A stretch of 64,000 bases of DNA from an uncultured Alphaproteobacteria bacterium (lineage in GTDB: Bacteria > Electryoneota > RPQS01), in assembly GCA_964587105.1 (NCBI GenBank), contig CAZPKG010000001.1, forward strand, positions 115,508-179,507, given 5' to 3'. A model generated the notes under the pieces. The model ran no database searches, was not told the origin of the DNA, and was given only the letters and a program-made list of their open reading frames with translations. The position numbers were made by a program, and so were the translations under genes. Positions 16,615-37,574 of this stretch are shown one piece after another; the stretch's first letter is position 1; each line of letters begins with the position of its first letter.

Positions 16615-16643
16615 TTGACTTTTCTGAAGTTTCGCTCTACATT
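16615..16643 (+). promoter_or_regulatory. Sigma70-like promoter TTGACT-N17-TACATT for the first BNR/T9SS paralog
   Basis: -35 at 16615-16620, 17-nt spacer, -10 at 16638-16643. The whole promoter and UTR is duplicated almost base-for-base upstream of the second paralog at 18699..18727. Confidence 0.55.
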
Positions 16644-16692
16644 CAGGAAACTTGGAATTTGGGTCCCATATTTTACTCCGCGGAGGTGTCCC

Positions 16693-18612
16693 ATGGAGCG
16701 GCGCGTTATTTTGGTCTTGATGATTGTTTGTTCAGTATTTACGAGTGCATTTGCGAAAAATGCCAAAGATCGTTTGGTTGGGCCGGCGGCAACGACAGGT
16801 TTTGAATCGGTTTCTGCGGCAAGTGTGCAGAGGTTGCCGGGAAGTCCTCTGGATACAGAGGGCGGTACCGAAAACTCAACTTATGCTGTTGTTGGTACAA
16901 CTTGGTATGACTACCAAACCAACGGCACGAACGGCAAGCAGATTGCAGTTGATCCGACTGGAAAAGTACATGTGGCTTGGACGAATGGAGAGCAAGATGG
17001 CTCGGCCGAACGTCATGTTTATTACAACGTGTGGGATCCTGAGCTTGGAAGCTTCATGTTTAATGGCGGTGTGCGCGTGGATGCCGGATCGCGCGCGGGA
17101 TTTGCCAACATTGCGGCGGCTGCGAACGGATTTGGTTTCCCGGCATTTCACGAGGTAGCGATTTCGCTGCCGCATGCGACGGCATCAATTGACTTCTTGC
17201 CTACCAGCGGTGCGTTTACGGGGTTCGAGGTTCCTTATCCGGCAGGCGAACCGCAGATTATCTGGCCACACATTGATATGGATATCAACGGCAAGATTCA
17301 CATGGTCGCGACGGAGAGTGGCGGGGCTTCAGCAGACTATTATGCGCGCGGAGTGCCGCAGTATGACGGCGGATTTGGTTTGGAAATTGTCTGGGAGCAA
17401 GGTTTTGATACCCCGTTTGTCGATGCGACATTTATCACGATGGATGTGGCGTGCTCACGCTCGAGTGAAAAGGTTGCCGTGGCGTGGATTGCCGATCCGG
17501 TTGGTGACCATGATAGCGAGAACATTTGGATGAAAGTCTCGGACGACGGCGGCGAGTCGTGGGGCGATGACATTCCTGTTACAAACATTCCGCCGATTGA
17601 TACCATGTGCGTGATTAACGGCGGCGATTGGATTACCTGCAATGCGGATACGTTCCGTCCGTGGGTGGATTTGTCGATTATCTTGGATGATCAAGACAAC
17701 GTACACATTGCTTATACGGCGCAGGCGTCGTTCTATTTTGATGAAACGGGTGCTGCGAATCCGGCCGGTTACGTCTATGCGACGTTGTGGCACTGGGGCG
17801 AAGATCGTAGAGAATTTAGCTTGATTAATCAGGCTTATTTTGCTAACGACTCCGTCGCACTCGGCGTGAATAATTTGATGTGTCATCGTCCCAGTTTGGC
17901 GATTGATACGACAACGGACTATCTGTATTGCTCGTTCCAGCAGTTTGACCAGCACGCTTACAGCGACGCGGGCTATCCGATGGGTGAATTTTATATGACG
18001 GTTTCGACGGATAACGGACAGACGTGGGCGGTTGCTACAAATGTGAGCAACACGCCGGGTGAGCCGAATCAGGTCACAGGCGAAGACCCGAGTGAACGCG
18101 ATATTACTACTGCGAAGTATGTGACCGACGGTATCATTCACACGATGTACCAGCACGATTACGCGGCAGGCAGCGCGGTGGCGTCGAGCGGTCCGGAAGG
18201 TCCGACGAGTTTGAACGAGATGATTTACATGCAGATTCCGGTTGGTGATATTCCGACGGAGCCGCGGCAGGAAATCTGGGCGTTCCGTGCGGACTCGACC
18301 GGTTTCCCGCAGATTGAATTGGCCGAAGAGCGTGCTGAATTGCCTGCGGGTTTCATGCTGCATCAGAACTATCCGAATCCGTTTAATCCGACGACGAACA
18401 TTCAGTTTGATTTGGCGAAGGCCGCGAATGTCAGATTGACTGTGTTTGACGTGACGGGTCGTGAAGTTGCGACTTTGATCAATAATGAAACTCTGGGCGC
18501 CGGAGTTCACACGGTGAATTTTGACGGGACAGGATTTTCCAGCGGCGTCTATTTTACGAAGCTTGAGATGGGCGGAACTTCTATGACGCGGAAAGTGGTT
18601 TTGTTGAAATAG
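16693..18612 (+). CDS. BNR/Asp-box repeat (sialidase-fold-like) secreted protein with T9SS CTD
   Basis: Start ATG at 16693 after GGAGGTGTCCC. Signal peptide MERRVILVLMIVCSVFTSAFA. Asp-box motifs SDDGGESW and STDNGQTW. C-terminal YPNPFNPTTNIQFDL...VYFTKLEMGGTSMTRKVVLLK. Confidence 0.7.
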   Translation: MERRVILVLMIVCSVFTSAFAKNAKDRLVGPAATTGFESVSAASVQRLPGSPLDTEGGTENSTYAVVGTTWYDYQTNGTNGKQIAVDPTGKVHVAWTNGEQDGSAERHVYYNVWDPELGSFMFNGGVRVDAGSRAGFANIAAAANGFGFPAFHEVAISLPHATASIDFLPTSGAFTGFEVPYPAGEPQIIWPHIDMDINGKIHMVATESGGASADYYARGVPQYDGGFGLEIVWEQGFDTPFVDATFITMDVACSRSSEKVAVAWIADPVGDHDSENIWMKVSDDGGESWGDDIPVTNIPPIDTMCVINGGDWITCNADTFRPWVDLSIILDDQDNVHIAYTAQASFYFDETGAANPAGYVYATLWHWGEDRREFSLINQAYFANDSVALGVNNLMCHRPSLAIDTTTDYLYCSFQQFDQHAYSDAGYPMGEFYMTVSTDNGQTWAVATNVSNTPGEPNQVTGEDPSERDITTAKYVTDGIIHTMYQHDYAAGSAVASSGPEGPTSLNEMIYMQIPVGDIPTEPRQEIWAFRADSTGFPQIELAEERAELPAGFMLHQNYPNPFNPTTNIQFDLAKAANVRLTVFDVTGREVATLINNETLGAGVHTVNFDGTGFSSGVYFTKLEMGGTSMTRKVVLLK

Positions 18613-18627
18613 TTTTAGGCGGTCAGG

Positions 18628-18646
18628 GGCACCCGCAGCGGGTGCC
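18628..18646. repeat. Palindrome GGCACCCGC-A-GCGGGTGCC (second copy of the 391..417 element), 16 nt 3' of the BNR gene stop
   Basis: Read from the sequence. It shares the core GGGGCACCCGC-N-GCGGGTGCC with 391..417. No U-tract follows. Confidence 0.55.
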
Positions 18647-18727: not shown

Positions 18728-18769
18728 CAGAGCATGGGTCCCGCGTTCATTTTTCACTGGAGGTGTCCC

Positions 18770-20575
18770 GTGAAGCGCGTGGTTTTATTCAGTTTAGTTT
18801 TTGGGTTGGTTTCGGTTGTCTTTGCCCAAGAGGGCGGCACGCCGGGTTCGGTGTGGATGTATGTGGGGAGTACGTGGTATGACGCTCAAGCTTCTATAAC
18901 TCCCGCGCGAGCAATCGCAGTGGCTCCTGATGGTGAGGTACACTTTGTTTGGACCAAAGGGAGTCAAGATTTGGCATTTCGACAGGCGTTCTACAATTGT
19001 TGGAATACAGAAGCTGGCACGCTGTTAAGCCCTGAAGGTATTCGGATCAGCGCTGGCCGAACCGGTTTTCCTTCAGTTGCGTCCGGCCAGTTTGGCCACG
19101 CACTCGCGGCTTACCACGACAATGGAGGTTCACAAGTCGAAATCAAGCCAGCGATTGAATTCCTCCCTTGCAGTGGAGCGTTCACTCTGAATCTTGATTT
19201 CCCAGAGCCTCCGGTTAATACATACTTCCCGAAATCGGATGTTGATCGTTTAGGTGCATTTCATGTAGCAGGAACTTTAGAGGACAATACCGCGATCAGC
19301 GTGTTTCACGCCCGTGGAATTCCTGCGTATGAAGACGGCACAGGCTACGGAATTGACTGGGAACACACGACGACTTTACAGTCAGTTGATTACGTATATA
19401 ATACAGTCAATATCGCGTGCTCGCCTGTGTCCGATCGTGTCGCGATAGCATGGATAGTTGATCCGCCCGCAGCAAACGACGCGGAGAACATCTTGTTGTC
19501 TTACTCAGAGGATGGCGGTTGGAATTGGAACCCGCCTATATCGGTTACCGGAATTCCTGCGATTGACACGAACTGTGTTGTTGAAGGCGGCAATTGGCGT
19601 GTGTGCAACGCAGACACGTTCCGACCTTTTCGAGACTTGTCTATGATCTTTGACTACGATGATTTTCTGCATATTGCGTTTACTACAAGAGGATGGTACT
19701 ATTTCGACGAAAATGGCGACCCGAATTCAACGGTTAATACTAACGGCTCTATATGGCACTGGAGTGAAGAGGGCTTCTTCAGCCTGATAGCTTATGCATC
19801 TTCGGAACATGACTCCACGAGATTTTTAGGCGACGATAATTTGATGTGTCAACGTCCGTGTTTGGCACTTGACACCTTGAACTTTGGTCTTCATGATCCT
19901 CAATTAATTTGCTCGTTCCAGCAATTTGACAGCTTGGCTTATAGTAGTGGCGGATACGCAATCGGAGAGTATTTTGTCTCCGGCTCATATGATAGGGGGA
20001 GAAATTGGGCGATTCCTACAAATGTGAGTAATACTCCGGGAGAAATGAATGATCCCGAGGGACAGAATCCAAGCGAGCGGGATATTACGATTGCGAAGCT
20101 TGCTTATGACAATTCTATCCACGCCTTGTATTTGCACGATTATGTTGCGGGTTCGACCGGTTGGGATCAGACGCCTGCTCACTTGTGCTCACTCGTTTAC
20201 ATGCGAACGCCTATTGAAGATATCGATATGTCCCGTCTGCAGGAGAACATCCCGTTTCGAGCGGACTCGACTGGGTTCCCCACTGCCAGTGACCAAATTT
20301 CTCCCCTGAAAATCTCTTTTGAATTGCATCCTAATTACCCCAATCCGTTTAATCCGAGCACAACGATTCAGTTTGATTTGGCGAAGGCGGGGGATGTGAA
20401 ATTGATGGTGTTTGATGTGTTGGGGAAGGAAGTGGCGACGCTTGTAAACGGGAGAATGGGTGCGGGAGCGCGTTCGGCCCAGTTTGACGGTGAGAAGTTT
20501 GCGAGCGGAGTTTATTTTGCGCGGTTGTCGGTGGGGAAATTGGCGATGACGCGGAAGATGGTGCTCTTGAAATAG
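18770..20575 (+). CDS. BNR/Asp-box repeat secreted protein with T9SS CTD, tandem paralog of 16693..18612
   Basis: Track ORF starts at 18734. The conserved GGAGGTGTCCC-GTG context supports a GTG start at 18770, giving VKRVVLFSLVFGLVSVVFAQ. It is colinear with the upstream paralog (VGSTWYDAQ.../VGTTWYDYQ..., VSNTPGE...PSERDIT...). Asp-box-like SEDGGWNW and SYDRGRNW. CTD ...YPNPFNPSTTIQFDL...KMVLLK. Confidence 0.7.
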   Translation: MKRVVLFSLVFGLVSVVFAQEGGTPGSVWMYVGSTWYDAQASITPARAIAVAPDGEVHFVWTKGSQDLAFRQAFYNCWNTEAGTLLSPEGIRISAGRTGFPSVASGQFGHALAAYHDNGGSQVEIKPAIEFLPCSGAFTLNLDFPEPPVNTYFPKSDVDRLGAFHVAGTLEDNTAISVFHARGIPAYEDGTGYGIDWEHTTTLQSVDYVYNTVNIACSPVSDRVAIAWIVDPPAANDAENILLSYSEDGGWNWNPPISVTGIPAIDTNCVVEGGNWRVCNADTFRPFRDLSMIFDYDDFLHIAFTTRGWYYFDENGDPNSTVNTNGSIWHWSEEGFFSLIAYASSEHDSTRFLGDDNLMCQRPCLALDTLNFGLHDPQLICSFQQFDSLAYSSGGYAIGEYFVSGSYDRGRNWAIPTNVSNTPGEMNDPEGQNPSERDITIAKLAYDNSIHALYLHDYVAGSTGWDQTPAHLCSLVYMRTPIEDIDMSRLQENIPFRADSTGFPTASDQISPLKISFELHPNYPNPFNPSTTIQFDLAKAGDVKLMVFDVLGKEVATLVNGRMGAGARSAQFDGEKFASGVYFARLSVGKLAMTRKMVLLK

Positions 20576-20602
20576 GAAATTTGAAAAATAGGAAATAGTC
20601 AG

Positions 20603-20642
20603 ATTCCGGCGGGGAACCGCTTCGCTTAATCCCCGCTCGGCG
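20603..20642 (+). repeat. 40-nt GC-rich hairpin element ATTCCGGCGGGGAACCGCTTCGCTTAATCCCCGCTCGGCG, 27 nt 3' of a T9SS-cargo gene
   Basis: Its near-exact reverse complement occurs at 56127..56166, with 1 mismatch over about 40 nt. That copy is also immediately 3' of a T9SS-cargo gene, 1 nt after its stop. Confidence 0.6.
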
Positions 20643-20716
20643 AGTAGAGTTGTCGAGTTGCTGAACATTTTACCCCCCTTAATCCCCCCAGAAGACTGGG
20701 GGGAAATCATACTAAT

Positions 20717-21811
20717 ATGACACTTGTACCACCTTACATTGAATCATTAATTCCATACAAGCCGGGGAAGTCGGCTGAGCAGATTCGTGAGCAGTATGGG
20801 CTCAGCAAGATTATTAAGCTTGCTTCCAATGAAAATCCGATCGGGTCTTCTCCGAAGGGAATTGAAGCCGCGAAGAACTCGTATCACGATATTCAGCTTT
20901 ATCCTGACGGCGGATTGATGCTGCGAAACAAGCTTGCGAAACTTTATGAAGTCAAGCTTGACAACGTGGTCGTGGGAAACGGATCAGAATCCATTTTGGC
21001 CAACATCGTGCGCACGTTCATGGACGACGATGAAGAGGTCTTGACCGTCGCCGGAACGTTTATCGGCATCTATGTCGCGGCATGGTCGCGCGGTGTAAAA
21101 CTGGTGACGCTGCCGCTGAAGGATTTCGCCTTTGATCTTGAGGCAATTGCCGACGCGATCAACCCGAAGACGAAGATTATCTATCTTTCGAATCCGAATA
21201 ATCCGACGGGGACTTACTTCAAGAAGCATGAGTTTGAAAAATTCATGAAGCGTGTGCCGTCGCGGACTTTGGTGATATTGGACGAAGCCTATTGCGAATA
21301 TGCGGAAGATTTCGACGACTATCCCGATTCGATGACATACCGGCTTGACAATGTGATAACGCTCAGAACGTTTTCCAAGGCCTATGGCTTAGCCGCCGTG
21401 CGAATCGGATACGGATTTGCGCATGAGGATTTGTGCCGCAATGTTTTGAAAGTCAAGCTGCCGTTCGAGCCGTCGAGCATTGCGCAAGCCGCCGGTGCGG
21501 GCGCTCTTGATGACACGGAGTTTTTGAAGCTCACGCAGGACACAAATCGTGCGGGCCGCATGGAAATGCCCAAGCTTTATGACGAACTCGGACTAAAATA
21601 CATTCCGACAGCGGCGAATTTCTTTATGTTACCGTTTGAAACTGAAGAGGAAGCGCTGAAGTTTTCGGAGGAGCTTGAACGGCGCGGAGTTATTGTCAGG
21701 CCTTTGCGCGGGTTCATGCTGCCGCATTGTGTGCGGATAACGATCGGCACGAAAGAGCAGAATGAGATGCTGTCGGGCGCGCTTCGCGAGATTTGTTTGA
21801 AGAAGGTTTGA
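20717..21811 (+). CDS. hisC: Histidinol-phosphate aminotransferase
   Basis: KLASNENPIG, YPD and SKAYGLAAVRIGYG (PLP-lysine region), 364 aa, class II aminotransferase layout. Confidence 0.8.
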   Translation: MTLVPPYIESLIPYKPGKSAEQIREQYGLSKIIKLASNENPIGSSPKGIEAAKNSYHDIQLYPDGGLMLRNKLAKLYEVKLDNVVVGNGSESILANIVRTFMDDDEEVLTVAGTFIGIYVAAWSRGVKLVTLPLKDFAFDLEAIADAINPKTKIIYLSNPNNPTGTYFKKHEFEKFMKRVPSRTLVILDEAYCEYAEDFDDYPDSMTYRLDNVITLRTFSKAYGLAAVRIGYGFAHEDLCRNVLKVKLPFEPSSIAQAAGAGALDDTEFLKLTQDTNRAGRMEMPKLYDELGLKYIPTAANFFMLPFETEEEALKFSEELERRGVIVRPLRGFMLPHCVRITIGTKEQNEMLSGALREICLKKV

Positions 21812-21880: not shown

Positions 21881-21963
21881 GTGCTGTTGTTTTTTTGAGT
21901 TAGTCAGAGAGTCTTGGGAGTTTGACCCCCCTTTGTTCCTCCGGTGGACCGGGGGAAATGGAA

Positions 21964-23265: not shown

Positions 23266-26200
23266 ATGAAGTTTAAGACATTGCTTTTCGCCGGTTGCAT
23301 TCTGCTCGTCTCGGGGTTGGCAAATGCGCAGTTCAATGCGACACTTTACGATTTCAATGGCGAATTGACCGATGCGTGCACAGGTGGTACACCCTACCCA
23401 GATAATGCCGTCACGATCGAAATCTTCTGGGATGACAATGCGAGCGGCCCGGATCCAACGGACGAACAGCCTGTGGTTGGCGACGGGTTTGCTGAATGCA
23501 ATTTCAATAGCTTCTTGATCAACGGCGAACAGTTCGGATTACCGGGGACTTTCTACACGGACCCGTTGTTCACAATCTCAACTGTAACTCCTCAGCCGTC
23601 GCTGTATTGGCTACGCATATGTGACAATGCGAATGGGATTATGTGGATCAGCGACACCGTACGTATCTTGAACGGCCTGAATGACTACGATTTTGGTGGA
23701 CTGTTCACATGCCATGATTCAACTTGTGGCGGCTGTACGAATCCAACTACAGTATTGGGATTCCAGGCGACGGATGTATCATGCTCACAAGTCTCGATGA
23801 CTTGGAACGCTTATCCTGCAGATCAAGATGTTGATTCGCTTTTCATCTATCGAACCAACGATCAGACATTGGTGACAAGACTGGCTCGGACGGCAACAAG
23901 TTTCAACTACACAAATGCGCCGGATGGGACTTTCAATTACTACATTAAGGCACGCAAGATTTGTGCGGCTCCGGCCGATACGTCTTTCTCAACAGCGGCA
24001 TCCGACTTCGGAACTCGCGTTGCTGCGGCCATTCCACCTGCGGACACATCGTTCACGGCATTTCCGCATCCTACGCAGTGTGGTGCGGTTATTTTGCAAT
24101 GGCGTGTGCCAACAAGTTTGGCAACAATTGATTCATTCAGTGTGTTCTTGAATGGAGTTCTGTACGACAGAACAGGCCCGGGACTTCCGAACCAGCAGCA
24201 GCGTGACACCGTTTTTACGGGGCTATCCGGAGTCCAAAACTACACGGTATCTGGCTGGAGTGAAGAGTGTGGTAATGGTGTTCAGACGATTGCCCGCCAA
24301 GCTACTGCGGCACAACCTCCTGCGCAAGTGACGGGATTGACAGCTTCGACGGGGCTGTGTTCAGTCAACTTAGCGTGGACAGCAGTGCCGGGGGCGACGA
24401 GCTATATTGTGCGCCGTAACGGTTCTCAGATCGGAACTCCTGTGACGAATAGCTTCTCGGATGCGACGGCAACTGTAAATACGGTTTTTGCCTACACCGT
24501 TTCGGCAGTTAACACGTCGTTCCCGGCGGCCTGTCAGGAAGGTGCACAATCAACTTCGGCGAACGGATCGAGAATAGGTACGCCACTCGCGCCAACAAGT
24601 GTGGTGGCCAGTGACTCGACGTTCTGTACGCATGTGGCTATCAGTTGGACGGACAATAGCTCTGATGAATCGGGCTTTGTGGTTCGTCGCGACGGCGCGA
24701 CCATTGTTACAACAGCAGCTGGTGTAACATCGTTCAATGATTCGTTGGCCACTGCAGGGAATCACAACTATGACGTAGCCGCGACCAATACGTGCGGAAC
24801 CAGTACATTCGCAACTGTGAATGTGGGTTCAAAGAAGGCGGTGCCAACAACACCGACTGGACTTCTGGCGACCGACAATCTGCCGACCCATGTTCGCGTC
24901 ACTTGGAATGCGATTATTCGTGAAACCAATATGCGAGTGTTGCGTAACGGCGTTTTACTGGCCACAATTCCTGCAGACTCTGTCGGATACAACGACTTGA
25001 CGGCGGTGGCAGGCCAGGTCTATGCCTACTCAGTTCTGGGTTTCAATGAATGTGGCGACGGTGCTGTGTCTAACGTTGATTCTGGACGCGTGTTGGCTTC
25101 ACTGAACGCCCCAACGAACATTCTTGCTACAGATAACCTTTGTGATCGCGTTACCGTGACCTGGACGGATAACAACTCCGCTCCGCAGGAAACGAGTCAT
25201 TCGATCTTGCGCGACGGAGTGATTGTTGGGAACGTCGGTGCGAACATTACGACATTTGACGACTTCACGGGTACGCCGGGCGTTGTCTATGCTTATAACG
25301 TTCAGGCCGAAGGTACGGGCGGCCCGGCCATTGGAGTTACGCCGGATAACGGAAAGCGCCGGGCGGCGCCTGCGGCTCCGGTGATTGCGGCGGACTCGGT
25401 GGATTGTGAAACCGTCTATGTGAGCTTTACACGCGCCGCGGATTCGGACTCGACGATCTTCTTCCTTGACGGCGTTCAATCGGTACATTCCACTTCGGCA
25501 TCCGGCGCGCTTTCAATTGCCTTGAATGATGACGCTGTGCATGTTCTGACAGCTCAAAGCGCGAATGCCTGTGGTCGTGGAACGGCGACAACTGGAATCA
25601 ATGTGCAACGTGATCAAACACCGACCGGCATTTTGAATCTTGCCGGAACGAGCACAGATTGTAATACGATTCAGGTGACGTGGACTTCGCCAGTTGATGC
25701 TACGAGCTTTGACATGTACATGGATGGCGTTCCACAGGGCAACGTTGCTGCTACTGTACCCCAGCCAGTAACATTGATTTCCGGAAATGGTCCCGCAACG
25801 CGCCAGATCTACTTCATTTCGCGAAATGCTTGTGGAGTTGGTGATACAAGTAACGTGATCAACGTTAGTGTTCAACAAGCTCCGACCGCACCAACAAACG
25901 TCGCTGCGTCTGACACCTCGTGTGCATTGGTTTACGTGACGTGGACAGCGTCCAGCGGCGACGTGGATGGCTATACTGTTCTTGAAGGTGCAAACGTTGT
26001 GGGTTCAACTGGACCGGGAGTGACTACATTCTCTTATGATCCGGGCAACAGCGATGTTCATCAATACACGGTGTTCGCGTTCAGCACGACCTGCGGCAAC
26101 TCTGCGTCTGCCGGACCTGATGCGGGTAACAAGGTTGCGCAGCCGGGCGTTCCGACTAACTTGACGTTTGCGAATAACAGCTGTGACAGCATTCGTATCT

Positions 26201-29200
26201 CGTGGGACGCGGCGAGTGGTTCTCCTGCCAGCTACGTGATTATCGAAAACGGCGACAGTGTCGCCTCGACCACTAACTTGCACTTCGAGTATGTGCCTGC
26301 AGGTGGGCCGGGAACGTATGATATCAGTGTGGCATCGTATTCAGCGTTTTGCGGTACGGGTACACCCTCAGCCCCGGTCGCAATTATTTTGTTCGCGCAA
26401 CCCACGCCGGTAAGCGGGCTGACTGCTTCAAGCAATCGTTGTGACGGCGTGCAGTTGGCGTGGAATACCTACACAGGTATCAATGACGGCTTCATTATTT
26501 ATCGCAACGGCGTACTGGTCACGACGACCGCGGCTGATGCAGTTGGATATTTTGACGCGGCGGCCGGTCTGGGAGCAAATCACTATGCCGTGATCACACT
26601 CTCGAATTTGACGGGCTGTGCCGAGTCTGATTCGGCGACGGCAAACGGTGCGGTTCTTCCGCTCCCCACCGTTCCGACCAACGTTGCGGCGACCGATACG
26701 TCGTGCGCCGATGTGTTTGTGACTTGGACGGCTTCCAGCGGCACTCTCGATGGGTATATTGTCTATCGCGGCGGAGTTCAAATCGCGACTGTGAATGCAC
26801 CGGCTACGAGCTATACTGATACAGGTATTTCTGGTGGCACGACGGCGGCTTATACAGTGGCTGCATTTGATGACATTTGCGGCACCTCAAGCCAATCGAC
26901 CGGCGATAACGGCACGCGCCTGCAAGGGCCGGCGGCGCCGACGGGTGTTGTCGCGTCTGACAATAGCTGTACTCAAGTTGACATAACTTGGAACACGGCT
27001 CCGGGTGACGTGACCGAGTATCGAGTCTATCGTAGCGGCGTGTTCATTGGCTCTGTGACACCTCCGACTACTTCATTTACGGACGCGATTGCGACAGGGA
27101 CGTTTGCTTACACTGTTACGGCGTTCAGCACGAACTGTGGAGAGACGGCTCAATCCGTTGCAGATGACGGAACCCGTCTGCCGCAAATGGGACAGGTGAC
27201 CGGCGTAACGGCGTCTGTTGACAGTTGCCAAGGGATTCTGGTGACGTGGGCGGCGCATTTGGGCGCAGTTAGCTACCGCATTTCTCGTGATGCTTCATTT
27301 ATCGCTGAAGTCAATGCACCGACGCTTCAGTATTTCGACAACACGGTGGCTGAAGGCGTTACGCACAGCTATACCGTGGCAGCGGTTAATCCGTGCAATA
27401 CGGGTGTTGAGTCTGGGGCGGCTGTGGGTTCGCGCGCTTCGACGCCATCGCAAGTGACGGGTTTGACCGCGTCAACTAACTTGGTCAGCCAGGTTTGTTT
27501 GAGCTGGACAGACGTGACAGGTGAACTTAGCTATCATATCTACCGTGACGCCGTTCTGATTGCTACAAACGGCGCGGATGACGTTGACTACTGTGATATT
27601 ACAGCTACACCGGGCACGACATACACTTATACCGTTGCGGCCGCGAATGTTTGTGGCGAAGGCACTCTCTCCGTCGGCGCGCAAGGTTCGGCAGTGTTCA
27701 GCCTCGGTCAAGTGACAGGATTGGCCGCGACCACGACCGATTGTGCGCAGATTTGCCTGACGTGGACGGATATTTCTAATGAGACCGGTTACGAAATTTT
27801 GCGTAACGGCACGACACTGGCAACGGTCGGCGCAGGAGTGGTTACCTATTGCGACTTAACACCCGCTCCGGGTGAGTGTTTCACATATGTGGTCCGAGGC
27901 TTTAACATCGGCGGCAACGGTCCGCTTTCGGCTGAAGTTCAGGGTTGCCGTCGGAGTATCCCGACTCAGGTGACGGGACTTACGACGACGAGTACGAATT
28001 GCAATGCGGTCGTGTTGAACTGGAACGACGCGACAGATGAAGATCGCTATGACGTCTATCGAGACGGCGGATTGTTGGTTCAAAACGTCGGCGCGCTGAC
28101 TTATACTGATAACTCGGCTGTGGCCGGAGTTGTGTATGCATACACGATTTTGGCTGTCAACGCCTGTGGCAATGCGCCGCAGAGCGTTGCCGTAAACGGC
28201 GTTCGTGCAATGACCCCGCCGCCGGTTACCGGCGGAGTCGCCTCGATAGACGTTTGTAACCAGATTGGCTTGAATTGGTCGGATCAACTCTCGGAACTTG
28301 GCTATCGCATTTATCGTGACGGTAACTTCCTGACTCCGATTGCAACGGTCAATGCGAATACGACCATCTATGTTGACGCGAATATTACCGGCTCACATAC
28401 CTATAATATCCGCGCATTCAATGATTGCGGCAACGGCGACCTGAGTGCTGACATTGTCGGCCTCGGTTTGACCACCCCGGGTATTGCTACGAACGTGGCA
28501 GCGGTTGAAAACTGCGGCGACGTTACGGTCACATGGACAGCGCCGAATACGACTCCGATTACAGAGTACCGTATTTTGCGCAACGGCGTTCAGGTCGGCG
28601 TTGTATCGGCTCCGGCGACGACGTATCAAGACTTGAATCTTCCGGCGGGAAGCTACAACTACCGCGTGGTGACAGCGAACCAGTGCGGAGCGGGCACGCA
28701 ATCGGCGCAGAGCAACGGCGTGACGGTTATCCCCACTCTGGTGCAAGTTCCGACCTTTACCGCGACCGCCAGCCCGTGCTTCTGTATCGACGTGACATGG
28801 GGCAACGTGGCCAATGAAGACGGTTACTATCTCTATTGTGACGGCGTGATTGTGGATACGTTGGGTGCGAACGTGACCTCGACAAACTACTGTCCTGCAG
28901 ATACGCAGTCTTGCGTCGTGCAAGTAGCGGCGTTCAATGCGTGCGAAATCGGACCGTTGTCGGTTGGAAATTCGGTTACTCCGAATACATATCCGGCGAT
29001 GGTCAGCGGATTCTCGGCAAGCGAAAATATTTGTGACCGCGTGCGCTTGACTTGGAATGCATATAACCAGCCGGGCGTAACGAGACTGAAGATTCGTCGC
29101 GACGGCGTGGCGATCGCAACTCTGTTGTCGGGCAACACGTCGTTTGAACAGCTTGGTTTGTGGCCGCAGAGCGTTTACAGCATCACAGCCTTGCGCGTGT

Positions 29201-31674
29201 GCGCCGCCGGCGATACGATTGAAGCTCCGCTTGCGATTGACAATGGCCGGACGGCTCCGACGCCTGCTGCTCCAACGCAGATGGCTGCATCGGATGACGG
29301 CTGTGGTATCGTAACGGTGACATTTACGTTCGCAAATGTGGATGGTCAAGACTCGGTGATGGTGAAGCGCAATGGCGTTATCATTGCCCGTCTTGCGGGT
29401 GGCGTGGCAAACGTGCAGCGATCATTTGTTGATACCAGCCCGCTGGGTGTGACGGCGACCTATGAAGTCTGCCCGGTTTCGAATTTGTGCGGTCAGGGCG
29501 GATGTGCCAGCGATCTGGGCCAAGCGGCTCCGACGGCAGGTCTTGTAACCGACGTGACGGCAACAACCGATCGTTGTACTTCGATTATCGTCAGTTGGAC
29601 CGGAACGCAGTTCGCTTTGAACTATCAGGTTCGTCGAAATGGAACGCTGATCGCCACCGTGCCGCAAGGACAGTTTTCCCATACGGACAACGTCTCGACC
29701 GGCGTGGTGAATACCTATACTGTAACGGCTACAAACGCGTGCGGAAGCGGACCGCAGTCACAACCTGCGCAAGGTTCGACGATTCCGTTGCCGCCTGTTC
29801 CGACCGGAGTTTCGGCTTCAGACGGTTTGTGCAACCAGGTTGTTGTGACCTGGAATGAGATCGGCGTTGCGACGGGTTATGAAGTGTGGCGCAACAACGC
29901 GCTCTTGGCCGAAGTGCCGGGCGGTGTTGAAGTGTACACGGACCTTGCCGTGACACCGGGAACGACTTACAACTATCAAGTGCGCGGCGTTAACCAGTGC
30001 GGCAGCGGCAACTTGTCGGCAGCAACGACAGGTTTCTCGGCGCAAGTGATTACAACTGTCACAAACGTCGTAGCGACGACGAATTTGAATGACCGCGTCC
30101 GCATCACGTGGAACAACGTTCCGCAAGAAACGGGCTATCAGATTCTGCGCGGCTTCCCGGCGGAAGTGATTGCAACGGTCGGCATTGACGTGACCAGCTA
30201 CAATGACTTCTCGGCAGCTCCGGGTGAAGAGTATGAATACCGCGTGCGGGCATTTAACGGTTGCGGCGAAGGCGAAATGTCCGTCGTGACATACGGATAC
30301 CGCGTGCCGGTAGATCCCATTCCGTTCGGCGTCATAACCGTTACTGAAGAGTTGTTCGGCTGTTTGTCGGCGGTAGCGCAGGATATGGATAACGACGGCG
30401 ACGCGGACGTTGTGGCCGCCGGTATGTTTGCGGACAAAGTAGTGTGGTACGAGAATACGGGCACGTGGGATTACATTCCTCACGTCGTGGTCGAGAACTG
30501 GGATGGCGCGCGCTCGGTTGCGGTCGGCGATATTGACGACGACGGCGACATAGACATCGCGGCTGTGGCGCAGTTTGCCGATCAGCTGGTGTGGTTCCGC
30601 CACAATGCCAACGGCACATATACGACCTTCGTCATTGCGAATAATTACGACGGCGCGCGTGACGTGTCCATTGTGGACCTTGACCGCGACGGCGACAAGG
30701 ACCTCGTGACGGCAGCCTGCGACGCGAACGATATTTCTTGGTGGCGTAATAACGGTACGGAAACATTTACCCGCGTCGTGGTGGATAATAACTTCATTGG
30801 CGCGCGCACCGTGGAAGTCAAGGATATCGGCGGCGACAACGATTGGGACATTCTGGCGTCGGCCTACGAAGGTGGAATGCTGGCGTGGTACTCAAACAAC
30901 GGTACACAGACGTTTACGCGCAACGTGCTGATGTCTGACGTGTATGGCGCGTCGTATATCAGCGCGGCCCGCTTGAACAGTGATAACGTGCTGGATATCT
31001 ACTTCTGCGTCGCGCAACAGCCGATGATCGGATGGATTGACGGCGCAACGCAAACATTCCATGAAGTGACGACGTTGGTTCCGTTCCCGCGCGAAATGGA
31101 CGCGGTGGACATGGATCAGGATAATCGCGCGGATCTCTTGCTGGCGGCCAACGAGAACCAGGAAATTTCGTGGTGGCGCAATACAGACAACCGTTTCTAT
31201 CGCAATCCGATTACGACTACTCTGACGCAGGCGTCCGTGGTACATGGTGGTGACTTTGACAACGACGGCGACAATGACGTGTTGGGCGCAGGCGAAGGCA
31301 CCATCAAGATTTGGCTGTCGGCACTGTCGGACGATACGCATGAATCCGAACTTATCATTCCGCAGGATGACGGAACCGACAAGCCGACCTATAGCCAGTC
31401 GATCGTTCCGTTGAACTACGAACTGTCGGCGAACTACCCGAACCCGTTCAATCCGATGACGCAAATTCGGTTCGGTTTGCCGGAAGCACAGAATGTCAAG
31501 CTGACGGTGTATGACGTGACCGGTCGTGAAGTCGCCCGATTGGTGGACGGCTCGTTCGGAGCGGGTTACCATACCGTGACGTTTGATGCGACGAATCTGG
31601 CCAGCGGATTGTATCTGTATCGCATCGAAGCGGGTGACTTCGTGTCGAGCCGCAAGATGATCTTGATGAAGTAA
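23266..31674 (+). CDS. Giant (2802 aa) T9SS cargo protein with about 26 tandem FN3-like repeats, a 7-bladed FG-GAP/VCBS beta-propeller and a T9SS CTD. Putative cell-surface adhesin.
   Basis: RBS GGAGGTTATACG-ATG. Signal peptide MKFKTLLFAGCILLVSGLANA. About 26 units of roughly 90 aa, each with the pattern P..PT.(V/L).A(S/T)D..C..V.(V/L)TW...........Y.(V/I).R.G..(I/V)....TS(Y/F)TD......Y.Y.V.A.N.CG. Seven D(M/I/L/F)D.DGD.D FG-GAP calcium-binding blades (DMDNDGDAD ... DFDNDGDND). It ends YPNPFNPMTQIRFGL...VSSRKMILMK. Confidence 0.85.
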   Translation: MKFKTLLFAGCILLVSGLANAQFNATLYDFNGELTDACTGGTPYPDNAVTIEIFWDDNASGPDPTDEQPVVGDGFAECNFNSFLINGEQFGLPGTFYTDPLFTISTVTPQPSLYWLRICDNANGIMWISDTVRILNGLNDYDFGGLFTCHDSTCGGCTNPTTVLGFQATDVSCSQVSMTWNAYPADQDVDSLFIYRTNDQTLVTRLARTATSFNYTNAPDGTFNYYIKARKICAAPADTSFSTAASDFGTRVAAAIPPADTSFTAFPHPTQCGAVILQWRVPTSLATIDSFSVFLNGVLYDRTGPGLPNQQQRDTVFTGLSGVQNYTVSGWSEECGNGVQTIARQATAAQPPAQVTGLTASTGLCSVNLAWTAVPGATSYIVRRNGSQIGTPVTNSFSDATATVNTVFAYTVSAVNTSFPAACQEGAQSTSANGSRIGTPLAPTSVVASDSTFCTHVAISWTDNSSDESGFVVRRDGATIVTTAAGVTSFNDSLATAGNHNYDVAATNTCGTSTFATVNVGSKKAVPTTPTGLLATDNLPTHVRVTWNAIIRETNMRVLRNGVLLATIPADSVGYNDLTAVAGQVYAYSVLGFNECGDGAVSNVDSGRVLASLNAPTNILATDNLCDRVTVTWTDNNSAPQETSHSILRDGVIVGNVGANITTFDDFTGTPGVVYAYNVQAEGTGGPAIGVTPDNGKRRAAPAAPVIAADSVDCETVYVSFTRAADSDSTIFFLDGVQSVHSTSASGALSIALNDDAVHVLTAQSANACGRGTATTGINVQRDQTPTGILNLAGTSTDCNTIQVTWTSPVDATSFDMYMDGVPQGNVAATVPQPVTLISGNGPATRQIYFISRNACGVGDTSNVINVSVQQAPTAPTNVAASDTSCALVYVTWTASSGDVDGYTVLEGANVVGSTGPGVTTFSYDPGNSDVHQYTVFAFSTTCGNSASAGPDAGNKVAQPGVPTNLTFANNSCDSIRISWDAASGSPASYVIIENGDSVASTTNLHFEYVPAGGPGTYDISVASYSAFCGTGTPSAPVAIILFAQPTPVSGLTASSNRCDGVQLAWNTYTGINDGFIIYRNGVLVTTTAADAVGYFDAAAGLGANHYAVITLSNLTGCAESDSATANGAVLPLPTVPTNVAATDTSCADVFVTWTASSGTLDGYIVYRGGVQIATVNAPATSYTDTGISGGTTAAYTVAAFDDICGTSSQSTGDNGTRLQGPAAPTGVVASDNSCTQVDITWNTAPGDVTEYRVYRSGVFIGSVTPPTTSFTDAIATGTFAYTVTAFSTNCGETAQSVADDGTRLPQMGQVTGVTASVDSCQGILVTWAAHLGAVSYRISRDASFIAEVNAPTLQYFDNTVAEGVTHSYTVAAVNPCNTGVESGAAVGSRASTPSQVTGLTASTNLVSQVCLSWTDVTGELSYHIYRDAVLIATNGADDVDYCDITATPGTTYTYTVAAANVCGEGTLSVGAQGSAVFSLGQVTGLAATTTDCAQICLTWTDISNETGYEILRNGTTLATVGAGVVTYCDLTPAPGECFTYVVRGFNIGGNGPLSAEVQGCRRSIPTQVTGLTTTSTNCNAVVLNWNDATDEDRYDVYRDGGLLVQNVGALTYTDNSAVAGVVYAYTILAVNACGNAPQSVAVNGVRAMTPPPVTGGVASIDVCNQIGLNWSDQLSELGYRIYRDGNFLTPIATVNANTTIYVDANITGSHTYNIRAFNDCGNGDLSADIVGLGLTTPGIATNVAAVENCGDVTVTWTAPNTTPITEYRILRNGVQVGVVSAPATTYQDLNLPAGSYNYRVVTANQCGAGTQSAQSNGVTVIPTLVQVPTFTATASPCFCIDVTWGNVANEDGYYLYCDGVIVDTLGANVTSTNYCPADTQSCVVQVAAFNACEIGPLSVGNSVTPNTYPAMVSGFSASENICDRVRLTWNAYNQPGVTRLKIRRDGVAIATLLSGNTSFEQLGLWPQSVYSITALRVCAAGDTIEAPLAIDNGRTAPTPAAPTQMAASDDGCGIVTVTFTFANVDGQDSVMVKRNGVIIARLAGGVANVQRSFVDTSPLGVTATYEVCPVSNLCGQGGCASDLGQAAPTAGLVTDVTATTDRCTSIIVSWTGTQFALNYQVRRNGTLIATVPQGQFSHTDNVSTGVVNTYTVTATNACGSGPQSQPAQGSTIPLPPVPTGVSASDGLCNQVVVTWNEIGVATGYEVWRNNALLAEVPGGVEVYTDLAVTPGTTYNYQVRGVNQCGSGNLSAATTGFSAQVITTVTNVVATTNLNDRVRITWNNVPQETGYQILRGFPAEVIATVGIDVTSYNDFSAAPGEEYEYRVRAFNGCGEGEMSVVTYGYRVPVDPIPFGVITVTEELFGCLSAVAQDMDNDGDADVVAAGMFADKVVWYENTGTWDYIPHVVVENWDGARSVAVGDIDDDGDIDIAAVAQFADQLVWFRHNANGTYTTFVIANNYDGARDVSIVDLDRDGDKDLVTAACDANDISWWRNNGTETFTRVVVDNNFIGARTVEVKDIGGDNDWDILASAYEGGMLAWYSNNGTQTFTRNVLMSDVYGASYISAARLNSDNVLDIYFCVAQQPMIGWIDGATQTFHEVTTLVPFPREMDAVDMDQDNRADLLLAANENQEISWWRNTDNRFYRNPITTTLTQASVVHGGDFDNDGDNDVLGAGEGTIKIWLSALSDDTHESELIIPQDDGTDKPTYSQSIVPLNYELSANYPNPFNPMTQIRFGLPEAQNVKLTVYDVTGREVARLVDGSFGAGYHTVTFDATNLASGLYLYRIEAGDFVSSRKMILMK

Positions 31675-31738: not shown

Positions 31739-31795
31739 TGCTCGTAATATGTGGTACTGCTACTGTCACTTCAACCGGAATTACCGGAGCACAAT

Positions 31796-33817
31796 ATGTC
31801 TGAAGCGTTAGATCGTCTGAGTATTAACACGGTGCGTGGTTTAGCAATTGACGCGGTTCAAGCGGCGAACTCGGGGCATCCTGGATTGCCGCTTGGAGCC
31901 GCAGTGATGGGCTACACGATTTTTCAGAAGCATCTGCGGCATAATCCGCTTGATCCGGCTTGGGTGAATCGAGATCGATTTGTTCTGTCGGCGGGACATG
32001 GTTGCGCGCTGTTGTATTCGTTGCTGCATTTGACAGGTTACGATTTGCCGATGGAGCAACTTAAGAAATTTCGTCAATGGGACAGCATCACGCCGGGGCA
32101 TCCAGAGTTAGGGATGACGCCGGGCGTGGAAGCGACGACTGGTCCGCTTGGTCAAGGCGTCGGAAATATCGTGGGGATCGCAATAGCGCGCGAAATGCTG
32201 GCAGCGATGTTCAATCGAGAAGGGCACGACGTTATCAATTTCCGCGTGTTTGGAATTTGTTCCGACGGCGATTTGATGGAAGGAGTGGCGGCGGAAGCAG
32301 CTTCGCTTGCGGGCCATCTCGGACTTGGATCGATTGTCATGCTTTATGACGATAATCACATCACGATTGACGGTTCAACTGAGATTGCGTTCACTGAAGA
32401 CGTCGGCGTGCGATTTGAAAGCTACGGCTGGCAAGTTTTAGCGTGCGACGGGATGAACGCAGACGAAGTGGATCAAGCCATTCGCGAGGGGATTGCCGAG
32501 AGCGAGCGACCGACGTTGATTCGCTGCCGAACGCAGATTGGCTATGGTTCTCCGAACCGCGCAGGCACTTCGAAGGTGCATGGCGCGCCGCTGGGTGATG
32601 AAGAGTTGTCTTTGACCAAAAAAGCGCTCAGCTTGCCTGAGAACGAGAAATTCTATGTTGCTTCGGAAGTTTTCAAGTATATGGGCGCGGCGCGGCAATC
32701 GGGCGCGGAACGTCAGGCGGCTTGGCAGAGTTCATTAGAAAAATCGTTTGCGGCGAATGCTGGATTGCAGCATCTGTGGCAGCAATTTTGGTCACGCAGA
32801 CTGCCGGAAAATTGGGCCGACAAGCTTCCGACGTGGAAAACAACGGATAAGCCGATTGCCACGCGCAAGGCCTCGGAGATGTGTTTACATGCGGTGACAG
32901 AATTGCCGTGGATCGTCGGCGGCAGCGCGGACTTGGTGGAATCGAATCTCACTTATCTTGAAGGCAAGGGTGATTTTCAGCGCGATCATCATGCGGGCCG
33001 CAATATTCGATTCGGGATTCGTGAGCACGGCATGGGTGCGATCCTGAACGGACTGGCTGCCAGCGCGCCATTCATCGCGTTTGGCGCTACGTTCATGAAT
33101 TTTCTCGATTACATGAAACCGTCAGTGAGAATCGCGGCATTGTCGCATTTGCCGGTGCTGTATATTTTCACACATGACAGCATTGGCTTGGGCGAAGACG
33201 GCCCGACGCACCAGCCTATTGAGCACTTGACGCACATGCGCGCTACGCCGAACTTGTGGACCATGCGGCCGGCTGATGCGAATGAAACCGCGCAGTGCTA
33301 CCGAGTAGCGCTCGAGCGTACGGATGGGCCGGTGGCGCTGTGTTTGACGCGCCAGGCGTTGCCGATTCTTGAGTACCCAGGCGAACGGTTGCCGGTTGAG
33401 TTGGGCGCCTATGTTCTCGCGGAAGCGAAGAACGAAAAGCCGGAGATAATCCTCATGGCGAGCGGAAGTGAAGTGGAGATTGCGTTGGGCGCCAAGTCGA
33501 TGCTGGAACAGGAAGGGATTGCGACGCGCGTCGTATCCGTGCCGTGCGTAGAACTGTTCGACAAGCAGCCGCAAGCCTATCGCGAGCAGGTGTTGCCGGG
33601 CAATGTGCGCGCGCGCGTTGCAGTTGAGGCGGGCGCTACGTTGGGCTGGTGGAAATATATCGGGCTTGACGGCGACGTGGTGGGACTCGATCGGTTTGGT
33701 GCGTCTGCTCCCGCAAAGACTTTATATGAGAAATTCGGATTGACTGCCGAGAATGTCGCACGCCGCGCGATGTCGGTGCGTGAGCGCGCGCGCTCTGCTG
33801 AGGGAGTCTTGAAATGA
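31796..33817 (+). CDS. tkt: Transketolase
   Basis: Track ORF begins at an in-frame GTG at 31751. ATG at 31796 has a GGAG RBS. GHPG thiamine-diphosphate motif and GEDGPTHQP in the transketolase-family region. Confidence 0.9.
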
Positions 33818-34263
33818 AACTTGCAGTTGGAAGCGATCATGCGGGATTCGAACTCAAGAAAGAATTGGTAGATTGGCTGACTGCGCAAGGACACGTCGTC
33901 GTGGACGTGGGCACGCACTCAACGGAAGCCGCCGACTATCCCGATTTTGCACAGAAAGTCGGTCACGAAGTAACCGAGCGACGCGCTGAACGCGGAATCA
34001 TCGTATGCGGTAGTGGAGTGGGCGCGTGTGTGGCGGCGAACAAAATGAAGGGCATTCGCGCAGGAATGTGCCACGACACGTTTTCAGCCCGGCAGGGAGT
34101 GGAAGACGACGATATGAACACGCTGTGTTTGGGCGCGCGAATCATCGGAGGAGAACTCGCGCGCGAAGTGTTGAAGGCCTTTCTGAATGCGAAATTCTCA
34201 GGTCTCGAACGGCATCAACGTCGATTGAACAAAGTCCTCGCCATTGAGGCTGCCGGAAAGTAA
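33814..34263 (+). CDS. rpiB: Ribose-5-phosphate isomerase B
   Basis: [15 protein letters not shown]...[13 protein letters not shown] are RpiB/LacAB signatures. There is a 4-nt ATGA overlap with tkt. Confidence 0.9.
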
Positions 34264-34289
34264 GCGAACGAACAATTTAGGAGATAAAA

Positions 34290-35390
34290 ATGAGTCATCC
34301 GATTATGAAGGCCACGCTCGACTTAGGGCAGTCGTTGTGGCTTGATTACATCAGTCGGGAGTTGATGGACTCCGGCGGTCTTGAGCGACACGTTGCGGAA
34401 GGGCTGCGGGGTATGACCTCAAATCCGACTATTTTTGAGAAGGCGATTTCCGGAAGCGCGGACTATGATAACGACATTCGCAAAGGGATCGCGAGCGATC
34501 TGTCAGCCGGCGACGTGTTTGAGAATCTGGCCGTTTCTGACGTGGCGCGTGCATGCAACATGCTGTCGGGAGTGTACCACGATTCACAGGGCGTGGACGG
34601 CTATGTCAGTTTAGAAGTTTCGCCGACGCTCGCGCATGACACAAAAGGAACCGTGAAGGAAGCGCTGCGCTTGTGGGAGCGCGTGAACCGTCCGAACTTA
34701 ATGATCAAAGTTCCCGGCACGTCGGCGGGGATTCCTGCCGTTCTGGAACTCCTGACGCGTGGAGTGAATGTAAATATTACGTTACTGTTTACATTGGACC
34801 AGTACAAGCAGGTGCTTGAGACATACATTCAAGCTCTGGAAGCGCGCCATGCCGCTGGACAAAATCTCGCTCAAATGGCGTCAGTTGCGAGTTTCTTCAT
34901 CAGCCGAATTGATTCAGTGGCCGACGCGCAGCTTGAAAAACTGGGACGCAAAGACTTGATGGCTAAGGGTGCGATTGCGAACGCCTGTTTGGCTTACAAG
35001 CACTTTCAAAATGTCACCGCCTCGCCACGCTGGCAAAAGCTTGCACAGGCCGGCGCGCGCGTCCAAAGACCACTCTGGGCATCAACATCAACCAAGAATC
35101 CCGAGTACTCAGATGTACTCTATATCGAAGAACTGATCGCGGATCATACCGTGAATACCGTCCCGCCGCAAACGCTGTCGGCATTTAAGGATCACGGCAA
35201 GCCCGCTCTGAAGCTGCTGAAGAACATGGAAACGGCGGACAAGACTCTGACGGAAATGAAAAGCCTCGGAGTTGACATTGACAAGATTGCCTTCGATTTG
35301 ATTGAAGACGGCGTGGTCAAATTTGCTCAGTCGTTCGACGCGATGCTTGGCGCAATTAGTTCAAAGCTGAAAGCCGGCGCGACGGCATAG
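34290..35390 (+). CDS. tal: Transaldolase
   Basis: SLWLDYISRE...TSNPTIFEKAI...NLMIKVPGT...NITLLF is the transaldolase signature including the Schiff-base lysine region. Confidence 0.9.
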   Translation: MSHPIMKATLDLGQSLWLDYISRELMDSGGLERHVAEGLRGMTSNPTIFEKAISGSADYDNDIRKGIASDLSAGDVFENLAVSDVARACNMLSGVYHDSQGVDGYVSLEVSPTLAHDTKGTVKEALRLWERVNRPNLMIKVPGTSAGIPAVLELLTRGVNVNITLLFTLDQYKQVLETYIQALEARHAAGQNLAQMASVASFFISRIDSVADAQLEKLGRKDLMAKGAIANACLAYKHFQNVTASPRWQKLAQAGARVQRPLWASTSTKNPEYSDVLYIEELIADHTVNTVPPQTLSAFKDHGKPALKLLKNMETADKTLTEMKSLGVDIDKIAFDLIEDGVVKFAQSFDAMLGAISSKLKAGATA

Positions 35391-35411
35391 CAGTATTTCA
35401 AATTGAAAACT

Positions 35412-35449
35412 AAAAAGCGGCAGACCGGAATGGCCTGCCGCTTTATTTT
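35412..35449. terminator. Bidirectional terminator GCGGCAG-loop-CTGCCGC-TTTATTTT between tal (+) and the carbonic anhydrase gene (-)
   Basis: 7-bp GC stem flanked by an A-run on the left and a T-run on the right. Confidence 0.7.
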
Positions 35450-35465
35450 GCGATCTTTAGTGCAC

Positions 35466-36308
35466 TTAGTGTTTGTACTTTGAGCCGCTGGTTTTGCGCG
35501 AGGCTTCTGAATGCTCAGAAGAGGATTTGTCATCCTTCTTTTCAGTTTTGGCTACTGACTTATGCGAATCACCCGCCTTGGTTTCTTCGGCTTTGGGAGC
35601 TTCAGCTACGGGATGAGACTCAGCTTCAGCTTTCTGCATGGCCACTGCACCAAGCTGAGATTGCCACAACACCGCGCCGGATTCGATGTCGTACACTGCC
35701 GAAAGCACGACGCAATTTCCGTCTGAGACGGCCTGTTCAATTTCGCGGGAACCTGAGATTAGAATGGAAGCACCGTTGCGCGCATTTTCTTTGATCACTC
35801 CCGAATAGAGATCGTCGGCGCCGTAGCCTTTTGACTGGCAAGCTTCAACGCTTGGTCTGATTTCATTCACGAGAGTGTTGAGTGGCTCAGGAAAATCGGA
35901 TTCTGACAAGGCCGCTCCGACTGCGCCGCACTTGGTGTGGCCCATGACGAGCACAACTGGACAATGCAAATGACCTACTGCATAATCTGCCGATGCTTGC
36001 ACCTCTTTTGGCGTGACGTTTCCGGCCACGCGGATCACGAACAGCTCGCCGAGACCGGCGTCGAAAATCTGTTCTGGCGGGACACGCGAGTCCGAACATG
36101 TGATGATGCAGGCATAAGGCGTTTGACCGGCCGAGAGATGCTCACGCTTGGTTGCGCCGCTATCCCAGACCTTCGGTTTGCCTTTCACAAAGCGTTCATT
36201 GCCTTTTTGCAGATTGGTCATGGCCTGATCAACCGTCCAAGCCGGGGCGTTGTCGTTCGCAAACGCGACTGCGCAAGAAACGAATATGAGTATGAAGATT
36301 CTAAACAT
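35466..36308 (-). CDS. Secreted beta-class carbonic anhydrase with K/E/S-rich disordered C-terminal tail
   Basis: Signal peptide MFRIFILIFVSCAVAFA. CSDSRVPPE and HxxCGAV zinc-ligand motifs. The roughly 60-aa tail is lysine, glutamate and serine-rich. Confidence 0.85.
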   Translation of the reverse strand: MFRIFILIFVSCAVAFANDNAPAWTVDQAMTNLQKGNERFVKGKPKVWDSGATKREHLSAGQTPYACIITCSDSRVPPEQIFDAGLGELFVIRVAGNVTPKEVQASADYAVGHLHCPVVLVMGHTKCGAVGAALSESDFPEPLNTLVNEIRPSVEACQSKGYGADDLYSGVIKENARNGASILISGSREIEQAVSDGNCVVLSAVYDIESGAVLWQSQLGAVAMQKAEAESHPVAEAPKAEETKAGDSHKSVAKTEKKDDKSSSEHSEASRKTSGSKYKH

Positions 36309-36451
36309 TGTGTTCTCCGTTTTTGGTTAGACGGTTTCCGAAGCGCAAACCTTATTCCAGAGCGATGCAAAATGAAGCTCACCCAAAGGCGCGTTTATTG
36401 CTCGTACACATTCGACTTATCATTCAATTGGATACTCCACGTTAGCTGCAC

Positions 36452-37464: not shown

Positions 37465-37482
37465 ACGATATTTCATTGCACT

Positions 37483-37518: not shown

Positions 37519-37574
37519 CTTGCGATATTCACGGGCATGTCGTATATTTACGGTCAACAACCTTGTGAGGTACC

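Follow-up and report, generated by a model that had tools for sequence, protein, structure and literature searches.

REPs linked to RAYT transposases have been described with a 5' GT[AG]G foot. Di Nocera et al. (2013; PMC3733652) distinguished GTAG- and CGTC-tagged REP superfamilies, of which the GTAG superfamily alone is linked to RAYTs; the CGTC-tagged elements have an unpaired CGTC at one end and an 8-9-bp stem that starts with A/T pairs (PMC3733652). REPs without GT[AG]G are documented for some tnpA_REP subclasses (PMC6006769), and the genes of subclass 2.6 and class 3 are flanked by what has been termed "atypical secondary structures" (PMC6006769). Here we describe, in uncultured FCB bacteria, a REP-RAYT system whose foot is non-canonical, starting from a hairpin that is repeated in a 64-kb stretch of DNA (the window).

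The first-pass annotation of the window reported a 40-mer that recurs as its reverse complement, and this is indeed the case. The sequence ATTCCGGCGGGGAACCGCTTCGCTTAATCCCCGCTCGGCG is found at 20603-20642 on the + strand and its reverse complement at 56127-56166, with one T/A change that lies in the loop. A 40-mer match of this kind is not expected by chance (0.00 in dinucleotide-preserving shuffles), and the repeat shared by these two copies reaches 43 nt, with 98% identity. The distances given to the preceding stop codons are also right (27 nt for ORF 18734-20575 on the + strand and 1 nt for ORF 56168-57331 on the - strand), as is the reading that both upstream genes encode proteins with a type IX secretion (T9SS) C-terminal domain (CTD), since Por_Secre_tail is found in both products. 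Two elements come on top of the original count. One is a third full copy, with its core at 56078-56117 on the - strand (ATTCCGGCCGGGTTGCGGAGGACCTTAACCCGGCTCGGCG), and the other a marginal, probably decayed copy at 49497-49541. A 12-mer that had been listed on its own at 49524-49535 is present, and turns out to be the head of this decayed copy on the - strand. The features that matter for what follows are these:

1692-2660, - strand: ORF with a T9SS CTD.
16615-18612, + strand: ORF with a T9SS CTD.
18734-20575, + strand: ORF with a T9SS C-terminal sorting domain, 613 aa, upstream neighbour of copy 1.
20600-20643, + strand: REP copy 1, type A, CAG-ATTCCGG-CGGGGA..TCCCCG-C(T)CGGCG-A, 60.4 bits.
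23266-31674, + strand: ORF with a T9SS CTD.
~49497-49541, - strand: probable decayed REP copy, ATTCCGGCGGGGCGAAGGCGCTCACGTTCGGCA, marginal at 13.4 bits (E ~0.06).
55904-55935: bidirectional intrinsic terminator serving the convergent pair 55318-55875 (+ strand) and 56168-57331 (- strand).
56077-56120, - strand: REP copy 3, type B, CCGGGTT..AACCCGG, 65.7 bits.
56126-56169, - strand: REP copy 2, type A, one loop difference from copy 1, 50.8 bits.
56168-57331, - strand: ORF with PD40 and a T9SS CTD (Por_Secre_tail), 387 aa, upstream neighbour of copies 2 and 3.

When the whole window was searched with a covariance model without filters, just these three full copies and one marginal copy were accepted, all of them intergenic. 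Copy 1 starts 24-27 nt past the stop of the Por_Secre_tail gene 18734-20575 and is in sense orientation. Copy 2 is also sense, and the GAG that flanks it on the 5' side shares bases with the TGA stop codon of the PD40/Por_Secre_tail gene. Copy 3 adjoins copy 2 head-to-tail; the two are of equal length and have identical feet, and their stems differ by compensatory changes (G-C to C-G and A-T to T-A). Because the terminator at 55904-55935 lies past copies 2 and 3, both copies are inside the 3' UTR of the PD40 gene. The probable decayed copy lies between an lpdA-like gene (48090-49493, + strand) and an ORF at 49548-49967 (+ strand), antisense to both. Two further weak model matches, at 46455-46480 and 30313-30337, are inside ORFs and, with E ~0.02-0.2 under a rough calibration, are probably due to chance. 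These two sites resemble empty sites, the two feet meeting with hardly any hairpin in between (GATTCCG-NN-TCGGCGG).

The unit reads CAG-ATTCCGG-[hairpin]-C(T)CGGCG-R and is ~44 nt long in the window. At its edges, position -3 is C in 72% of cases, position -1 is G in 92% and position +1 is a purine in 90%, and the sequence farther out is random. The fold put forward by the first-pass annotation, GGGGA/TCCCC with an outer stem, agrees with the predicted one. The hairpin is predicted at -18.4 kcal/mol as RNA and -10.6 kcal/mol as DNA, its z-scores being modest (-0.8 to -1.5), and copy 3 has a fold z-score of -3.1. Every variable pair of the upper stem (7/7) changes on both sides, with 91% of cells paired. 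In an alignment of 66 distinct stems, whose loops were swapped for GAAA, the covariation score was 0.349, compared with 0.108 in shuffles; none of 500 shuffles reached 0.349, and the signal was lost when the stem partners were slid. Among the copies found, the feet, including the bulged base, are almost invariant and the 7-bp upper stem varies while staying paired, an invariance that is partly forced because the genome scan and the regex collection demanded exact feet. In unconstrained model matches the feet carry occasional single-base changes. Copies beside metagenome RAYT genes, which were found without the original pattern, keep the feet and the bulged T and have wholly different upper stems, such as CAGGGAC/GTCCCTG, GAGGGTC/GACCCTC, GCACGCG/CGCGTGC and GCAGGTT/AACCTGC. 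Neither GTAG nor GTGG occurs at either end of the unit, whose foot consists of (C)AGATT followed by a CCGG basal stem. Considering the REPs without GT[AG]G documented in PMC6006769, the missing tag rules out the canonical GTAG superfamily but not a system of the REP/RAYT kind.

The family is not confined to the window. When one genome per species was scanned with the pattern ATTCCGGCNGGGN{12,20}CCCNGCTCGGCG, the matches listed included at least 89 true member loci (8-kb blocks) in ~10 MAGs. The host MAGs among these listed matches are labelled KSB1, Calditrichaeota, plain "bacterium" and, in three cases, "uncultured Alphaproteobacteria". Eleven pattern matches in unrelated GC-rich genomes (loci L024, L028, L031, L032, L035, L037, L047, L066, L074, L083 and L086) were discarded, their interiors being unrelated and non-palindromic. 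A covariance model built from 60 distinct copies (R1) found at least 139 copies in 627 kb of related-MAG blocks, and one MAG holds at least 38. In these relatives, too, most copies lie outside genes. Stem types recur, both type A (copies 1 and 2) and type B (copy 3), and some MAGs hold both, like the window. Two family-carrying MAGs have genes that share 54-67% identity with window genes, in partial synteny, and the element is the sole match when the window is compared by blastn with the fetched loci. The earlier suggestion of a REP/BIME-like family is thus borne out by the many more copies that the model search gave, by strong covariation and by a cognate RAYT (see below). A full-text literature search for REP or RAYT with KSB1 or Calditrich- returned no paper describing such repeats.

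The three TPA MAGs labelled "uncultured Alphaproteobacteria" are CAZHAK01 (L005, L007, L029, L048, L058, L060, L067 and L076), CAYORN01 (L012, L062, L073 and L097) and CAYUIF01 (L059), and in these the RAYT is found alongside the REP family. Their label is probably wrong. It is doubtful because one of these MAGs encodes, at L005:4698-4931, a T9SS C-terminal domain 68% identical to that of the window.

Orthologous junctions differ in whether they hold a copy. The PD40 orthologue in MAG JADKHW01 (L030), which is 67% identical, has no REP at its 3' side. Part of the DeMMO2_36 MAG (L051) is syntenic with window positions 31751-38252, and there a REP is found at the 3' end of the orthologue of 34290-35390, a junction that holds an ordinary terminator alone in the window. 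The absence in JADKHW01 and the presence in L051 mean that copies come and go at orthologous junctions, which we read as a signature of mobility.

A candidate for the enzyme responsible is encoded between copies of the element itself. In two blocks, inverted copies ~500 nt apart enclose an ORF of ~160 aa. Both of these ORFs (L058:6513-7013 and L020:438-920) have a Pfam Y1_Tnp match, and with 90.7 and 93.1 bits, respectively, they pass the cutoff of 80 for NCBIfam NF047646 REP_Tyr_transpos. When four RAYTs of this kind were combined into a profile, its best structure was E. coli TnpA_REP (4ER8; E=1.5e-9), to which the HUH and Tyr motifs align, and there was a weak likeness to ISDra2 TnpA. Judging from their motifs (DHLH, LW[RKQ], Y[MV]HxNP and WSS), the proteins resemble subclasses 2.2 and 2.6. 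By tblastn, RAYT genes are present in four blocks and none is present in the 64-kb window, so we infer the cognate RAYT of the source organism from those observed in its relatives. Two RAYTs of one MAG are 44% identical.

Inverted REP copies bracket the RAYT gene in L058, where they lie 7-8 nt from both of its ends, likewise in L020 and L034, and in at least eight metagenome loci. The layout is constant, with an opposite-strand copy abutting the start codon (0-7 nt away), a same-strand copy just past the stop, and both heads facing the gene. A RAYT lies inside every one of the seven head-to-head pairs with a spacing of 485-543 nt. At each locus, the stems on the two sides of the gene agree with one another and with the dispersed copies of the same genome. 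A metagenome scan with the RAYT alignment yielded 80 loci, in which R1 has matches at 19 of the 40 whose RAYT shares 45% identity or more with the query, and at 0 of the 40 where this identity is 40% or less. With a looser test, a head-inward hairpin ending in C-N-CGG[CT]G, 25 of 32 close loci were positive, 18 of them on both sides, compared with 0 of 28 distant loci. These hairpins place the window family, as one branch, in a broader group whose feet are related (NCCGG/NGCGG ... C(N)CGGCG).

Together, these findings make it highly probable that the element is a REP, a non-autonomous DNA hairpin of ~44 nt that is spread and maintained by a cognate RAYT (TnpA_REP, an HUH-Y1 single-stranded DNA endonuclease). 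It is a small mobile-DNA relic and not a signal of secreted-protein genes. By analogy with E. coli TnpA_REP and IS200/IS605, the RAYT would bind the hairpin folded on single-stranded DNA, reading the invariant foot and the bulge and not the upper stem, and would cleave and rejoin DNA at the hairpin, thereby seeding new copies and tandem or inverted arrays. By the same analogy, insertions would be tolerated chiefly just past stop codons, and the copy beside the RAYT start codon may also hold RAYT translation down. The window copies possibly affect the mRNA 3' ends of the T9SS genes, which would be a secondary by-product of transcription through the 3' UTR.

Among other readings, the one that fares best, although we regard it as improbable, is that the element primarily acts in cis as a 3'-UTR RNA element (an mRNA stabiliser or a modulator of translation or decay) and that its link with RAYT is incidental. 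Many copies lie within ~0-10 nt of stop codons, the window copies stand between a stop codon and the real terminator, and E. coli REPs are reported as local 3'-UTR regulators (bioRxiv 10.64898/2026.03.23.713779; PMC3733652). However, the two orientations give different RNAs and yet both are common. By simple longest-ORF gene calls, on which these context statistics rest, 25 of the copies located no more than 80 nt downstream of a gene stop are antisense and 15 are sense (25 and 9, respectively, without the window and RAYT-adjacent copies). Other copies are found between convergent genes (18) or between divergent genes (eight, i.e. in promoter regions), and copies stand on both sides of RAYT genes. 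The same distribution contradicts the fixed sense orientation 3' of genes that had been proposed from the window alone. In addition, positions are not conserved between orthologous genes, and stem mismatches are G.T in 14 cases and A.C in 13, so that, with no excess of G.U, nothing points to selection on an RNA fold in particular.

Some ORFs end inside the element, the loop region of which carries TAA or TAG on both strands. Copies inside long ORFs, or forming their last codons, are seen at L082:4377-4417, L080:49-85, L071:459-495, L006:7568-7604 and L097:6157-6194; with a TAA stop in the loop these are possible intragenic or stop-replacing insertions, under ORF calls that are crude. Among close pairs of copies (no more than 150 nt apart), 15 are head-to-tail, six head-to-head and none tail-to-tail.

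That the element is a Rho-independent transcription terminator, another role that had been suggested for it, is very unlikely. A GC-rich hairpin just downstream of genes is what such a reading calls for, but no U-tract follows and none of the three copies is terminator-like. The sequences after the copies are AGTAGAG, AACAGGC and GTCATTC, none of which is a T-run, whereas window genes otherwise end in standard terminators made of a hairpin and a T-run, including the separate bidirectional one at 55904-55935.

The first-pass annotation also raised the possibility of a 3'-UTR signal specific to genes of T9SS-secreted cargo, and both independent window sites do follow Por_Secre_tail genes in sense orientation. 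We give this almost no credence. With a local HMM whose seed was the three window sorting domains verified by Pfam, we detected a CTD in 2 of 37 element-adjacent genes outside the window and in 29 of 430 others (Fisher p=1.0), and both of these CTD-adjacent cases are antisense. The proposed clustering with cargo genes therefore does not hold in the relatives. Within the window, the hairpin after CTD gene 16615-18612 is of another kind, the probable fourth copy lies antisense downstream of lpdA, and the PD40 gene has the orthologue without the element described above. Since 5 of the ~42 window ORFs have a CTD, the two T9SS neighbours are best read, and most simply, as coincidence; there is no functional tie between gene 18734-20575 and copy 1. 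Two further observations concern the CTD genes themselves. The five ORFs include one for a 2802-aa protein, and CTD-coding DNA is itself a detectable repeat (family D1).

Searches for other classes of element gave no candidates. No Rfam family matched at gathering score anywhere in the window, a tRNA scan of the window found nothing, and on inspection the attC and CRISPR readings were set aside, there being no GTTRRRY core sites and no regular spacing. The copies have only a negligible chance of being ends of an IS200/IS605-type insertion sequence or a derived MITE instead of REPs, because, even though the associated protein has a Y1_Tnp match in Pfam and a weak likeness to ISDra2 TnpA, the hairpins flanking the gene are inverted and not direct, the protein passes the cutoff of the RAYT equivalog and has E. 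coli TnpA_REP as its best match, the 44% identity between RAYTs of one MAG means that they are not IS copies, and 44-nt units are dispersed alone, without the gene.

Other small repeats are found nearby. A canonical GTAG-tagged palindrome, GTAGGGGCGGATGGCAATCCGCCC, is located at 55948-55971 on the + strand of the window, within the intergenic mosaic that holds copies 2 and 3, and also at L063:2503-2526, L072:1794-1817 and L076:7108-7131, in two related MAGs. In L072 it lies ~35 nt from a copy of the REP studied here. Mixed clusters of the studied REP and a GTAG-type REP are thus present in the window and in L072, and this proximity means that two REP families live side by side in BIME-like clusters. 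At 56008-56034 of the window, with the GTAG-type REP on one side and the studied copies on the other, there is a motif with an ATCCT/AGGAT stem, GTCATCCTGAACGAAGTGAAGGATCTC, which has no match in the 180 fetched loci. The neighbouring motif GTCATCCTGAACGAAGTGAAGGATC was looked for in the loci and not found. A perfect 21-nt palindrome, GGCACCCGC(T/A)GCGGGTGCC, occurs at 395-415 and 18626-18646 of the window and at L098:1468-1486 in a Calditrichaeota MAG; its window sites are beside ORF 424-1488 (- strand) and just 3' of CTD gene 16615-18612, and it may be a third small repeat family. Two similar C-rich/G-rich hairpins, ACCCCCCTT..CCCCCCAGAAGACTGGGGGGAAAT (20671-20706) and GACCCCCCTTTGTTCCTCCGGTGGACCGGGGGAAAT (21917-21955), flank an aminotransferase gene at 20717-21811. 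Some copies in the DeMMO2_36 MAG (L056:1133-1224, L087:1615-1706 and L096:589-776) are nested in a larger inverted repeat, CGAAAACAATCCGACAAAAG [REP] TACATGTCGGAAGGATTTCG, which suggests a composite repeat unit.

These results do away with a tempting but mistaken association of T9SS cargo genes with a 3' hairpin, and provide a clean REP-RAYT pairing outside the Proteobacteria, the home of almost all REP work. The near-invariant feet and the covarying stem amount to a natural mutational series for what a RAYT reads on its hairpin. In practical terms, the covariance model flags repeats in KSB1/Calditrichota-type MAGs that can break assemblies, shift stops and mislead ORF callers. A bolder proposal, which we make tentatively and consider rather doubtful, is that the family represents a distinct, phylum-spanning REP superfamily, possibly with this family as its type example, of KSB1, Calditrichota and related uncultured FCB lineages, defined by an invariant CCGG / C(N)CGGCG foot with one bulged base in place of a GT[AG]G tag, with its own RAYT clade and with unusual arrays and orientation. 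If this were true, foot recognition by the transposase would work differently. The population behaviour of the family is also unusual, with mainly head-to-tail arrays, an antisense bias right after stops and copies that sometimes supply the stop codon itself.

Compared with known systems, the element resembles the E. coli REP/BIME-TnpA_REP pair (4ER8) and Pseudomonas REPINs in that it is a short, imperfect palindrome containing a bulge, with feet that are single-stranded and conserved. As in proteobacterial REP/REPIN-RAYT systems generally, it is multi-copy and extragenic, is often located just 3' of genes, and is associated with a ~160-aa HUH-Y1 gene bracketed by inverted copies (a REPtron), the genome-specific REP variants matching the copies at the RAYT. 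It differs from these systems in its foot, which is CAGATT + CCGG and not GT[AG]G, in having the 3' tail C(N)CGGCG as its most conserved part, and in its hosts, which are uncultured KSB1/Calditrichaeota-like FCB bacteria. The RAYT itself has only a distant similarity to its E. coli counterpart (E=1.5e-9). Clusters and inverted doublets do occur, but the doublets (6) are fewer than the head-to-tail tandems (15), unlike in most described REP families. CGTC-tagged REPs (PMC3733652) are likewise short palindromes without a GTAG tag, with Chlorobi and Bacteroidetes among their hosts and with head-to-head dimers. In contrast to them, the present family has neither a CGTC tag nor A/T pairs at the base of its GC-rich stem, and it has a RAYT, whereas CGTC-tagged REPs were reported without a dedicated transposase (PMC3733652). 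On the other hand, there are several points in common with the tnpA_REP genes of subclass 2.6 (Bacteroidetes) and class 3 of Quentin et al. (2018; PMC6006769). Those genes too are flanked by hairpins without GT[AG]G that recur elsewhere in the genome, their hosts are FCB bacteria, and they share a YxH[QN]NP-like Y motif and a C-terminal SS motif with the RAYT described here. The HUH motif here is DHLH, whereas NH[LIV]H is listed for subclass 2.6, and the hairpin here is strong and sharply defined, unlike the structures of that study, which are called weak there.
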